Source: a virus. Taken from it: a stretch of DNA of 64,000 nt. The notes beneath the pieces are model-generated. The model ran no database searches and was not told the origin of the DNA. It saw only the letters and a list, made by a program, of their open reading frames with translations. This document shows positions 2,451 to 39,568 of this stretch, piece after piece. The position numbers and the translations under genes were made by a program. The first letter of the stretch is position 1; the number at the start of each line of letters is the position of its first letter. The stretch spans positions 17,196-81,195 of IMG/VR virus record IMGVR_UViG_3300012232_000011. One strand, given 5' to 3'.

Positions 2451-4313
2451 ATGAAACTGATCAATGCCGACGAGCAACCGCCGCGATTGAAAGTCATCCC
2501 TCGCGGTTGCTCGTCGCTGGACTTTCGCGCCGACCGACGACCAAAGGGACGGATCATTACCGTCCATTCCCGCACTGCGAGAAAGCGGAAGGCGGAGCGG
2601 CGGATGCTGTCCGCCTTCGAGATCGCCGGAGCCTCCGCCGCCGCGCCCGAACTTGAGGATGCCGGCGGCGCGCCGCCGACTATCGATCCGCTGGTCGCCG
2701 TCCGCGACCTGGACCCGTGCGACTGGATCGAGCGCAACTTCTACATCGTCAACCAACTGAACGCCGCGACGGAGTTGATCAAACTGTTCCTCCGCCAGAA
2801 GGCGATCCTTCGCTATTGCTTCACCCGCAACGAAGCCGGGCGGTTCCCCTTCCAGATGATCGTGATCAGCACGATCAAGAAATCCGGCAAGACCACGCTG
2901 ACCGCGACAATCGAGCGATGGCTCGCCGAAACACAAGTCCGCTACGGCGAGATCTACTGTCTCGGCAACGATAAGGATCAGGCGCGGGATCGTTCCTTCA
3001 AGTTCGTGAAGGAATCGATCGAGCTGACGCCCGGGTACGACCGCCGGCACGAGATCCTCCCGGGACGTTGGGATGTGTTCGCAAACTCGCTGCGGTGCCT
3101 ATCGTCGCAATCCATCATCAAGGCGGTCGCGGTCGATGCGAAGGGCGAAGCCGGAGGGCGTCCGTATTGCTCCGTCTGGACGGAGCTGTGGGGATTCGAG
3201 TCGGCGGAAGCCAAGAAACTCTGGACGGAAATGACACCCGTCCCGACGATCCCGGACTCAATGCGTATCATCGATTCCTACGCCGGCTTCGAGGGCGAGA
3301 GCGAGACGCTCCGGCGCATCTACGATCGCGGGATGGAGAACGGGCACCAGCTCACGAATCACGAACTCGCGCTCGCGGCCGCACGCGATGTCGACGGCGA
3401 GCGATACGAGGATTTCCTGCACGCCTTCGAGGAGTGCAACGGCGACCCGGACGCGCTCGTTCCCTGTTGGGTCGAAGGCCGCATGTTCATGTATTGGGAC
3501 AGCGGCGCGGCGGCGCGGCGGATCAAAGAGCTACAGACGCCGGAGTATTACGCCGAACAGTCGAAAGAGTTGCTCCCGCAAGAGTTCACGCGCATCCACG
3601 AGAACGTGTGGGGATCCGGCGTCTCGAACGCGATCCCGATTGCTTCGTTCGATGCCTGTTGGGATGCGACGCTGCCGCCGCTCATGCCCGGCGACCTTGC
3701 GCCGATGATCCTCGCGTGCGACGCCGGCACGTCAGGCGACGCCTTCGCGATTCTCTCGATTACGCGACACCCGCTCGACAACACCCGCGCCGCGCTCCGC
3801 GAGTTGCGCGTCTGGACGCCGGACGACTTCCGCGACGAGCCGGGCTTCGACGAAGGGCGGATCCAGTACGTCGAACCGGAGAAGTTCATCCGCTGGTGTA
3901 TCGACAACTTCAACGTGCTGAACATTTGCTACGACCCGTATCAGCTCGAAGATATGATGCAACGGATCCGGCGGGAGACCGGAGCCTTCGCCTCGCAATT
4001 CCTACAGGCGAAGGACCGCGACGTATCGGATCGCGGCTTCTACGATCAGGTCGTCCAGCGGACGCTCTCCTGGAACTTCCACGACACGTGCGAATGGGAC
4101 GGCTCCGCCCACGTGCGCTGCGTCGCGCCTGGCCGGGACCCGACGGAGGGCAAGAGCAAGGTCTTCCGCCAGCACCTAATGAACGCCGACAAAAAGATCC
4201 AAGCGAATCAGGAGTCGAAGATGCGGTTCGTAAAGAAGCCGAGCGGTCGCCCGATTGACCTTCTGATCGCGGCGTCAATGGGCGTCGAACGTGCGCTGTA
4301 CCTGATGATGTGA
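2451..4313 (+). CDS. terL: terminase large subunit (true start may be ATG 2604)
   Basis: Walker A IKKSGKT, Walker B-like VWTELWG, coupling motif IDSYAG, RNase H-type nuclease motifs ACDAG..D, YDPYQ and PIDLLIA. Confidence 0.92.
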   Translation: MKLINADEQPPRLKVIPRGCSSLDFRADRRPKGRIITVHSRTARKRKAERRMLSAFEIAGASAAAPELEDAGGAPPTIDPLVAVRDLDPCDWIERNFYIVNQLNAATELIKLFLRQKAILRYCFTRNEAGRFPFQMIVISTIKKSGKTTLTATIERWLAETQVRYGEIYCLGNDKDQARDRSFKFVKESIELTPGYDRRHEILPGRWDVFANSLRCLSSQSIIKAVAVDAKGEAGGRPYCSVWTELWGFESAEAKKLWTEMTPVPTIPDSMRIIDSYAGFEGESETLRRIYDRGMENGHQLTNHELALAAARDVDGERYEDFLHAFEECNGDPDALVPCWVEGRMFMYWDSGAAARRIKELQTPEYYAEQSKELLPQEFTRIHENVWGSGVSNAIPIASFDACWDATLPPLMPGDLAPMILACDAGTSGDAFAILSITRHPLDNTRAALRELRVWTPDDFRDEPGFDEGRIQYVEPEKFIRWCIDNFNVLNICYDPYQLEDMMQRIRRETGAFASQFLQAKDRDVSDRGFYDQVVQRTLSWNFHDTCEWDGSAHVRCVAPGRDPTEGKSKVFRQHLMNADKKIQANQESKMRFVKKPSGRPIDLLIAASMGVERALYLMM

Positions 4314-37154: not shown

Positions 37155-38660
37155 ATGGCCAGCACCCGTAAGATCCTCCGAACGCCGTTCAGCCGGCTCT
37201 TCCTGATCGAAGATGGAGCCGGACCCGGCAACGCGCCCATCTATCAGACGCTCGGTCGTGCGCTCGGGTTGTCGGAGGAAGCGGGAACGATCACCCGCAT
37301 CGAAGCGCCGGATCCCGCCAACTACGGCGAGTTCATCACGGTCGACAAATCGCGAGGGCAGCGCGGCTTGCCGCAGATCAGCATCGAAGCGCGGATGACG
37401 CGGGAGCTTTCGACGCTCCGCCGAGCCTTTGAAAAGGGCTGCGCCATCGACCTCCACGTTCACGCCGGACTCTGTCAGGATCCGCAGGACTTCGACCTCG
37501 GGTGGGAGACCGGGTGGATTCTCGAAAACGCGGACGTTCAGAGCTACAGCACCGGCGAACTCGGCGCGCTCGATTCGTCCGCCGACGCGCCCGTCAACGA
37601 AACCCTGCCGCTCGTCGGCGACCGCTGGTATCAATTCGTCCCCGTCGCCGTCGGCGAGATCGGCGAAGGTCCCATCGTTCAGGAGATCGTCGCGGTCGCC
37701 ATCATCGACCGGAAGACCTGCGGTGTGTGCGGCATCGCCTCGAACGGCTGCGACAAACTGTTCGCCGTGACGAAGTCGCACGGCGCGTCGCCTGGACTTC
37801 CCGCCGAGCTTATCTTCAGCGAAGACGGCGGCGGCACTGTGCAGGACACGCCGATCACCACGCTCGCCGCGAACCAAGATCCGACCGACCTGTTCGGCTC
37901 CGGCCAATTCGTCGTCGTGCTGTCCGCCGAGTCGCTCTCGCACCACTACGCATTGATCGCCGACACCCTCGAAGGCACCGAGGCGTGGGGCGAAGTCGAC
38001 GGCGGATACGTCGCGACGCACGGACCCCGCGCCGGCTTCAGCCTCGGGCGGACGTTCAACTGGATCGTCGGCAACCTCGGGTACATCTACTTCACGGAAG
38101 ACCCGACCTCCGCCGTTCAGGTGCAGGACGCGGGGAACGTCACGGCGGAGCATTACCGCGACGTACACGGCGTCGACGAGTTGAACCTGATCGCGGTCGC
38201 TGAGAACAACTCCGGCGCCGTCACGCAGGACGGCGAGAACTGGGCGGCGTTCGTTGGCCCGTCCCCGGGCGACGACCTGCTTACGTGCTGGATGCGCTCC
38301 GAACAGGAATGGCTCGTGGGCACCGACGCCGGCGAGTTGTGGTACACCCGGAACGCCGGGCGCACGTGGACACAAAAGCGATTCGCCGGCGACGCCGACG
38401 GATCGGTCAAGAAGATCTCGTTCGGCTCGCGGAACATCGGCTACATGATCCACCAACCGTCGGTCGGCGCGGCGCGGATCTTCCGCACGCTAAACGGCGG
38501 CTTCTCCTGGTACGTGATCCCGGAGGGGACCGGGTCGATTCCCGACAACGACACGCTCAACGACATCGCCGCGTGCGTTGACAACGTGAACTTCGGCATC
38601 ACTGGTGGGCTTGCTGGCGACGCCGTCGACGGGATCTTCCTCCGCATCTCTGGCGCGTAA
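37155..38660 (+). CDS. major tail (tube) protein with a C-terminal beta-propeller-like domain
   Basis: First gene of the tail operon, upstream of the chaperone and tape measure; BNR-like SEDGG, TQDGENW, TRNAGRTW and TLNGGFSW repeats. Confidence 0.65.
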   Translation: MASTRKILRTPFSRLFLIEDGAGPGNAPIYQTLGRALGLSEEAGTITRIEAPDPANYGEFITVDKSRGQRGLPQISIEARMTRELSTLRRAFEKGCAIDLHVHAGLCQDPQDFDLGWETGWILENADVQSYSTGELGALDSSADAPVNETLPLVGDRWYQFVPVAVGEIGEGPIVQEIVAVAIIDRKTCGVCGIASNGCDKLFAVTKSHGASPGLPAELIFSEDGGGTVQDTPITTLAANQDPTDLFGSGQFVVVLSAESLSHHYALIADTLEGTEAWGEVDGGYVATHGPRAGFSLGRTFNWIVGNLGYIYFTEDPTSAVQVQDAGNVTAEHYRDVHGVDELNLIAVAENNSGAVTQDGENWAAFVGPSPGDDLLTCWMRSEQEWLVGTDAGELWYTRNAGRTWTQKRFAGDADGSVKKISFGSRNIGYMIHQPSVGAARIFRTLNGGFSWYVIPEGTGSIPDNDTLNDIAACVDNVNFGITGGLAGDAVDGIFLRISGA

Positions 38661-38706: not shown

Positions 38707-39486
38707 ATGGCACGACAAAATGGGAAGGCGCCGCCGGGCGCACGGCAGCGAAAAGGCAACACTACGACGGCGGCTGCAGTAGCAGCCGCCGAAGTTGTCG
38801 AACGCGGAGGCGCACGCGAGGCACTCGAATGGACGCTCTCGACGGGCGTGAAGGTCGCGATCACGGCGGCTCCCGCCAACGCCTTACAGGAAGCGGCGCG
38901 GCGGATCCCCAAGCCCGACCCGCCGATGATTATGAACGAGGCGAAACAGCGCGAGGAACCCAACGCGGATCACCCGTCGCACAAACTGGCCCTCGAGCAA
39001 TGGGAATACGATCAGGCGATTGCGGCCGCACAGATCGCCGTGCTGCTCGGGGTGAAGATTCTCGAAGTCCCCGAGGGATTCGCGAGGCACGATGGCGGCG
39101 ACGACGAGTGGATTGACGATCTCGAATACCTCATGCCGGAGATCAAGGTCGACCGGGACAACGAGCGGTCGAGGCGTATCCATTGGCTCCGCTATCACGC
39201 GGCGCGGTCGAACAGCGACATCGCGATCGTGAACTCCGGGCCGATGATGCTCGCCGGCGTGAGTGAGGAGGACGTGGCGAAATCGATCGCCTCGTTTCGG
39301 CGTCTTGAGACACGACACACCGATCTTGGAGTACCCGCTGACACGGCGGGGGGACACGGAGACGGGGATCGCGTATCAGTCGATGATCCCGGGACTGATA
39401 CCGGAGATCGAGGAGCGGGAAGCGGCGCAATTCCTCCATCACACGTGGGCGGAGTGGACGGAGAAGGATCGCCAGTATCGGACTAA
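38707..39486 (+). CDS. tail assembly chaperone (G-like product)
   Basis: Sits between tail tube and tape measure; codon bias collapses after TCG TTT CGG at 39292-39300. Confidence 0.7.
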   Translation: MARQNGKAPPGARQRKGNTTTAAAVAAAEVVERGGAREALEWTLSTGVKVAITAAPANALQEAARRIPKPDPPMIMNEAKQREEPNADHPSHKLALEQWEYDQAIAAAQIAVLLGVKILEVPEGFARHDGGDDEWIDDLEYLMPEIKVDRDNERSRRIHWLRYHAARSNSDIAIVNSGPMMLAGVSEEDVAKSIASFRRLETRHTDLGVPADTAGGHGDGDRVSVDDPGTDTGDRGAGSGAIPPSHVGGVDGEGSPVSD

Positions 39487-39568
39487 CGGTATCGCGCACT
39501 TCCGCCTGCATCATCTGATGGAAGCGCACATGCGGGACGCGGCGATGGAGAAGAGCAGCGATGTTTGA
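39296..39568 (+). CDS. tail assembly chaperone frameshift extension (GT-like product, 38707..39568 via +1 shift)
   Basis: Frame +1 from TTC at 39296 is GC3-rich (FGVLRHDTPILEY...) and ends overlapping the tape measure ATG. Confidence 0.7.
   Translation, partial: FGVLRHDTPILEYPLTRRGDTETGIAYQSMIPGLIPEIEEREAAQFLHHTWAEWTEKDRQYRTNGIAHFRLHHLMEAHMRDAAMEKSSDV

Follow-up and report, generated by a model that had tools for sequence, protein, structure and literature searches.

A gene at 38707-39568 in the genome of an uncultured phage very probably encodes a tail assembly chaperone that is made as two products with a common N-terminal domain, the longer of which would arise by a +1 slip of the ribosome on the tetranucleotide UUU_C. 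The assignment as a chaperone is based on the position and architecture of the gene, with modest evidence from its predicted fold. In the DNA the coding signature passes from frame 0 to the +1 frame at the codon pair TTT CGG, this architecture is conserved at the same codon among relatives in a large protein family, and the domains on both sides of the site are predicted to fold.

Locus and gene order

The phage sequence comes from a metagenome assembly; its IMG/VR virus record has 81,526 bp, carries direct terminal repeats and is rated 100% complete. The window, by which we mean the whole 64,000-nt stretch of DNA that was analysed, corresponds to bases 17196-81195 of that record, and the features of the locus are listed in Table 1. 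The ORF that directly follows the chaperone gene was identified as the tape measure by matches to PHROG families, the best of them with E = 2e-83, and to Pfam. The 501-aa protein encoded on the other side has no PHROG match, and its sole Pfam match, to a BNR/YCF48-like repeat, was sub-threshold (E = 8e-5). As this gene has no family assignment, the placement of the chaperone after a major tail gene is positional only.

The likely start of the chaperone gene is ATG 38707, though no clear SD lies ahead of it, and a further in-frame GTG upstream at 38605 overlaps the preceding gene. Over approximately the first 30 codons (38707-38800) the frame-0 GC3 is low (0.57-0.60) and that of the +1 frame is 0.73-0.83. 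[quoted passage not shown]

Table 1. Features of the chaperone locus, with coordinates given in the window.
Feature	Coordinates	Strand	Remarks
Frame-0 chaperone ORF ('G', 259 aa, P0002)	38707..39486	+	Residues 1-197, conserved N domain; residues 198-259, apparently unselected run-on tail
Putative shift cassette UCG_UUU_CGG (E-, P- and A-site codons)	39292..39300	+	Slip tetranucleotide TTTC at 39295-39298; C 39298 is the base that would be skipped in the long product
'T' segment, +1 frame	39299..39568	+	89 codons + TGA; conserved domain, predicted to be folded; stop overlaps tape-measure start ATGTTTGA
Frame-0 continuation past the shift site	39298..39486	+	62 codons + stop; non-coding GC pattern; predicted disordered; length not conserved in relatives
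Tail length tape measure protein gene, 1218 aa	39561..43217	+	18 PHROGs + PF10145
Upstream 501-aa gene, major-tail-protein position	37155..38660	+	No family assignment found

Reading frames at the site

In frame 0 the codons read ...AAA TCG ATC GCC TCG TTT CGG CGT..., with TCG at 39292, TTT at 39295-39297 and CGG at 39298, and the frame continues to a stop codon at 39484-39486. After a TGA at 39260-39262, the +1 frame is open from 39263 to the TGA at 39566-39568, overlapping the tape-measure ATG at 39561, and the two ORFs share 189 nt (39298-39486). An earlier note on this DNA, made from its letters alone, had described both the +1 frame ending over the tape-measure start and frame 0 running on to 39486, and its coordinates are exact.

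The GC content at the three codon positions changes frame at the same point. Frame 0 gives 0.68/0.42/0.80 over 38791-39297 and the +1 frame gives 0.63/0.42/0.80 over 39299-39565, while the tape-measure gene, at 0.69/0.45/0.80, has the same signature as frame 0 before the site and the +1 frame after it. Past the site frame 0 gives 0.81/0.60/0.44, a non-coding pattern that is the signature of coding DNA read out of frame. The switch is also seen in sliding windows, so the change of GC3 bias from frame 0 to +1 that had been claimed at TTT CGG is reproduced. Conceptual translation with a +1 step at this position yields P0001, a protein of 286 aa joined at SIASF|GVLR, and SIASFGVLR, the junction peptide proposed previously, matches this translation.

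Homologues of the chaperone

HMMER, run in full against 1.84 billion cluster representatives, returned 912 homologues with E <= 1e-3. The chaperone family is uncharacterised and very large, with at least 900 cluster representatives. Among the best 150 of the 912 homologues, nearly all alignments end at query residue 197-198, which is the proposed shift codon, and none covers residues 198-286. An alignment of 29 homologues shows F197 to be invariant, with similarity collapsing beyond it. The last N-domain position is F in all 145 representatives that reach it, and the residue that follows is R in 111, P in 16, Q in 7, L in 6, W in 3 and S in 2; since all six of these residues have pyrimidine-initial codons, the base after the F codon can be a pyrimidine in every one of the 145. 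The frame-0 tail of these representatives ranges in length from 2 to 92 residues.

Searches of Pfam and PHROGs gave no match for G or T, nor for 29 relatives of the former and 33 of the latter. GenBank phages gave no match by blastn with 3.8 kb or by tblastn with the N domain and with the relative P0012, and hence no cultured relative is known. A word-based protein search returned only the window's own ORF, and an alignment-based scan of genome contigs found no prophage relative. Loci reached through the tape-measure protein (L001-L006) were rejected, as their upstream genes are unrelated.

Conservation of the TTT_C site

For comparison at the nucleotide level, 46 IMG/VR loci were drawn using the conserved N-domain peptide E[EP]N[PL][NDS][DH]PxY, and because this peptide is far from the site the sample is not biased to any shift motif. 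The F codon was then located in each locus with the N-domain HMM. In the 36 loci that aligned to the HMM end this codon is always TTT, followed by C in 35 (CGG, CGC, CGA, CCA, CCG, CAA or CTG) and by A in the other. Among the ten loci with shorter alignments, nine carry TTT_C and one, L019, carries TAT_AAA_A. Overall, TTT_C is found in 44 of the 46 loci, with TTT_AAA_A and TAT_AAA_A in one each, and no locus has TTC at the shift codon. The share of TTT among Phe codons is 14% for the window and ranges over 9-79% in relatives; multiplying the codon-usage probabilities of TTT over 34 distinct loci gives 10^-16.8 (about 1e-17). The next base, C, is kept in 33 of these 34 loci, though it would be undecoded in the fusion and it opens a codon of the unconserved tail.

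The A-site codon is CGN in 25 of the 34 loci (CGG in the window), a frequency confounded by the +1-frame Gly/Ala codon, and R after F is likewise the commonest residue at the protein level (111/145). Conservation of TTT CG in homologues had been put forward as a check on the frameshift, which these counts for TTT_C and CGN now supply. About 40 independent contigs, from different samples and sharing 25-40% protein identity, break frame at this codon as the window does. Because the same frames and the same TTT_C recur in so many independent metagenomic phage contigs, the frame architecture is far beyond chance.

In the two loci without TTT_C, L019 (3471-3480, GCC TAT AAA AGT) and L030 (3496-3505, GCT TTT AAA AGT), the T domain starts KV.. 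in the +1 frame. The sole re-pairing site in L019 is AAA_A, which would be read by tRNA-Lys, and AAA_A thus appears to serve the family as a further +1 slip motif. A different departure is seen in L047 (2980-4261), where a frameshifted G/T gene with TTT_C at 3436 and a +1 stop at approximately 3733 is directly followed by a 175-aa N-domain paralogue (3734-4261), and the chaperone is therefore duplicated there. This paralogue has neither the F/TTT_C site nor a T part, and a long tape-measure-like ORF begins after it at 4311.

The T domain and the frame-0 tail

Past the site the +1 frame shows no stop codon for 250-298 nt in 35 of 36 loci, the remaining one being L018, where it runs off the contig. 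Frame 0 meets a stop after 9-228 nt, and the -1 frame does so within 2-83 nt, with a single exception (221 nt). The +1 translations align from the first or second residue and share the pattern xVxRxGEPI...G.VP..EEREAA...Y.W..W..L....RA..VAHYR...LI..H..DA, and nucleotide conservation past the site is concentrated on the first two positions of the +1 codons. An ORF of 325-1000 aa starting close to the +1 stop was found in 31 of the 35 loci examined, with the stop at -11 to +37 nt from its start.

In AF2 models the T segment of the window (about 90 aa) has a mean pLDDT of 90.6 and residues 40-185 of the N domain have pLDDT >90, while residues 200-259 of the frame-0 tail have pLDDT 45-51 and are predicted to be disordered. 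A fold search with the T domain found no PDB match. The frame-0 tail thus seems to be free of selection, though it would be translated in the predicted short product. The earlier note had spoken of about 190 nt of dual coding; the overlap of the two ORFs stands, at 189 nt, but the lengths of 2-92 aa in relatives and the disorder predicted by AF2 speak against selection on the frame-0 reading of it.

Probable identification as a tail assembly chaperone

The features that point to a tail assembly chaperone are the tape-measure gene directly following, a second ORF without a conserved start, and a conserved slippery tetranucleotide in the overlap. In a fold search against 48,161 representatives, the best PDB match of the N domain was B. 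subtilis YqbN (3KLU; Z 6.0, 105 of 119 residues, rmsd 4.7), ahead of a second chain with Z 4.8; YqbN is listed among phage tail assembly chaperones (PMC9603447). Foldseek against BFVD gave weak matches (E 0.01-0.1), many of them named tail assembly chaperone.

Proposed mechanism

From this architecture we infer that a ribosomal slip yields a fusion protein that functions in tail assembly. Most ribosomes would read frame 0 to its stop codon and produce G, consisting of the 197-aa N domain and a 62-aa tail that is probably unselected. In a minority, with the A site still vacant and UUU 39295-39297 occupied in the P site by peptidyl-tRNA-Phe (anticodon GAA), the tRNA would move one base on and pair with UUC, so that a G-C pair takes the place of a G-U wobble; C 39298 would be skipped and GGC 39299 read next. 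The long product, GT, would have 286 aa, its 89-aa T domain terminating over the tape-measure start codon. If the two proteins work as lambda gpG and gpGT do, the tape measure would acquire a coat of G and of the G portion of GT, with the T portion bringing in the major tail protein.

The junction is confined to TTT-C-GGN, between the invariant F codon and a conserved V/I codon two codons on, and re-pairing of tRNA-Phe(GAA) from UUU to UUC would be the only one that fits. The strict use of TTT, never TTC, and the retention of the next C support this step, as they are exactly what such re-pairing needs. Sites of the form UUU_Ynn are described as shift-prone to +1 in bacteria (PMC5009743), and UCC_UUU_CGU is described as the proven PA-X site, with the +1 re-pairing proven by mass spectrometry (PMC3498833). 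The central claim of the earlier note, a +1 programmed frameshift at UUU_C with re-pairing of tRNA-Phe, is accordingly upheld by the near-invariance of TTT and C, by a T domain that begins at the junction, by the lack of a conserved start and by the closed -1 frame.

A pause normally favours +1 shifting. The note had supposed that CGG is decoded slowly, and this part of its proposal is unsupported: CGG is common in the phage (24.5 per 1000), which led us to reject a rare A-site codon as the source of a pause, and among relatives the choice of A-site codon is dictated by the residue with which the T domain opens, which confounds any judgement of its rarity.

Stimulatory elements and the E-site codon

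In the window, the RNA of the 103 nt past the site folds no better than shuffled sequences (z = -1.36); across 34 loci the mean z is -0.28, and RNAalifold gave no consensus structure. No correctly placed SD stimulator was found at the site. The sole SD-like run, GAGGAGGA at 39265-39272, is perfect, ends 22 nt before TTT, and encodes a conserved E-E-D. A purine run is kept in relatives (GAGGAGGANGT), where it corresponds to the conserved residues E-E-D/E-V. GAGGAGGA was rejected as an SD stimulator, being too far upstream for known SD stimulation and explained by these conserved residues. ARAGORN found no tRNA gene in the whole 81.5-kb genome, and a phage tRNA or quadruplet decoding was rejected on that basis.

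Since no stimulator was found, the efficiency of the shift is probably low. A few per cent would be expected, and by comparison with lambda, which makes about 1 GT per 30 G according to PMC5009743, such a level would suit a chaperone.

Where the codon before TTT encodes Ser, it is TCC in 14 of 18 distinct loci, as against 3.4 expected from the Ser usage of each locus (P = 5.8e-8), and these loci thereby carry the longer PA-X motif, UCC_UUU_CGN. The E-site codon of the window is UCG, so the UCC feature holds for the family and not for this genome. At the PA-X site, mutation of UCC is reported to have cut frameshifting by 40-70% (PMC3498833). Elsewhere in the phage genome, in-frame TTT_CGG occurs 0 times in GC3-rich ORFs as against 8 occurrences of TTT_CGC, and the ratio of TTC_CGG to TTC_CGC is 25:44. 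This is suggestive at most of avoidance of the shift-prone TTT_CGG pair (p about 0.03), the ORF set being crude and including spurious ORFs.

Alternative explanations

The break between the frames could have been produced by a sequencing or assembly indel, or could mark a pseudogene, the true gene being one in-frame ORF; the record is an uncultured metagenome assembly, there is a short T run within the site, and an A run lies 13 nt upstream. Such an origin is scarcely credible given the same break at the same codon in the independent contigs described above, and given that none of the best 150 of the 912 homologues is an in-frame G-T fusion. It is also very unlikely that these are two separate genes, with no fusion made and the T ORF translated alone, through re-initiation or an internal start. 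Gene callers do annotate the frame-0 ORF alone, and the +1 frame of the window holds GTG 39263, TTG 39305, TTG 39326 and ATG 39383 as potential starts, but no SD lies ahead of these candidates and relatives have no start codon in common. In many of them the +1 frame has its first ATG, GTG or TTG at least 94 nt past the junction, even though T is conserved from the junction itself, and in several loci the +1 frame opens just 8 nt ahead of TTT. With starts so far downstream, or a frame that opens so close to the site, independent initiation would be unable to yield the T domain, and separate initiation would also leave the invariance of TTT_C unexplained.

If entry into the +1 frame is real, it might still come about in another way, by a -2 slip as in Mu, by out-of-frame binding of Gly-tRNA with the P-site tRNA keeping its pairing, as in Ty3, or by a special tRNA that reads UUUC as a quadruplet. 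A -2 shift reaches the same frame and is described for the Mu chaperone (PMC3498833), and no pause signal was found at the site. On a -2 move, however, tRNA-Phe would face CGU or CCU, or tRNA-Arg would face UUC, with no pairing in either case, and the 81.5-kb genome is without a tRNA gene. The strict TTT and the conserved C after it are instead the exact need of UUU to UUC re-pairing, and we regard these other routes as unlikely.

Significance

To our knowledge, well-supported natural +1 shifts in bacteria and phages are few, namely prfB, Listeria phage capsid and tail genes, and YopN-TyeA. The family described here supplies a defined motif, (UCC_)UUU_C(GN), in dozens of independent sequences, and with it an annotation rule for an uncharacterised chaperone family of at least 900 cluster representatives, a lineage in which gene callers systematically miss the long (predicted) chaperone product. 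The match of the motif to the PA-X/amalgavirus site links recoding in phages with that in eukaryotic viruses. Firth et al. 2012 reportedly raised the question of whether such motifs are in use elsewhere, and the phage family suggests that they are.

A broader proposal is that UCC_UUU_CGN is a universal stimulator-free +1 cassette, working on bacterial and eukaryotic ribosomes alike, which in these phages would set the G:GT ratio in place of a -1 heptamer. We offer it tentatively, with doubts that slightly outweigh our confidence. If it is true, the preference for UCC in the E site would reflect the conserved core of the ribosome, and the family would be the first natural prokaryotic system for studying the E-site effect.

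Comparison with known systems

The closest parallel in gene organization is lambda gpG/gpGT, together with the conserved tail chaperone frameshift of which it is part (Levin 1993; Xu, Hendrix & Duda 2004; both as cited in PMC5009743). In both cases the gene adjoins the tape measure and gives two products, here predicted, that are identical at the N-terminus, the second ORF lacks its own start and extends to where the tape measure begins, and the frameshift is conserved though the sequences are dissimilar. Where lambda shifts by -1 on an X_XXY_YYZ heptamer, the phage described here would shift by +1 on the tetranucleotide UUU_C. It also differs from the known chaperone families in having no sequence similarity to them, a larger N domain (about 197 aa), and a long frame-0 run-on (62 codons).

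The site itself most resembles those of eukaryotic viruses. UUU_CGN sites are described for influenza A PA-X (UCC_UUU_CGU), amalgaviruses, fijiviruses and chronic bee paralysis virus (PMC3498833, PMC5052127). As at these sites, the phage site would have UUU_C slipping to UUC in the P site, with CGN preferred in the A site and no detectable stimulatory structure, and the PA-X site also shares the synonymous UCC of the E site, which is a family-wide preference in the phages, the window itself having UCG. Unlike all of these, which are eukaryotic RNA virus cases read by 80S ribosomes, this is a prokaryotic DNA phage with an unrelated gene function, and its A-site codon is tied to the first T-domain residue.

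Among bacteria, +1-prone UUU_Ynn sites include that of the Yersinia YopN-TyeA fusion (cited in PMC5009743). Those sites are mostly error-level or a single cellular case, whereas conservation of the phage site spans a large family of viral proteins.

The shift in prfB (RF2) occurs at CUU_UGA with an SD 3 nt upstream, and those in Listeria phages PSA, A118 and A500 occur at CCC_UGA or at CCC with a pseudoknot. These share with the proposed mechanism a +1 slippage in the P site in bacteria or phages. They differ in that the A site here holds CGG and not a stop codon, with no correctly spaced SD and no pseudoknot.

Other departures from the -1 rule have been described for chaperone genes, in the -2 shift of Mu gpGT and in a likely +1 shift in the haloarchaeal virus HSTV-2 (PMC3498833, PMC5009743). 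The account of PRFect gives 350 forward chaperone cases annotated in SEA-PHAGES, and in its treatment of forward shifts it identifies no general motif (PMC10885494). The Mu, HSTV-2 and SEA-PHAGES cases are alike in that a gene of the same class is shifted into the +1 frame, but they concern other protein families and hosts, and here there is a defined, conserved motif. The -2 shift of Mu has no counterpart at this site, where the bases two upstream read CGT (window) or CCT and would be unpaired with tRNA-Phe. In the literature searched, no paper joining UUU_C to a phage tail chaperone was found. Frameshifts of the +1 type in tail assembly chaperones are therefore uncommon but not unprecedented, and the present case is a new and well-supported variant rather than a new principle.
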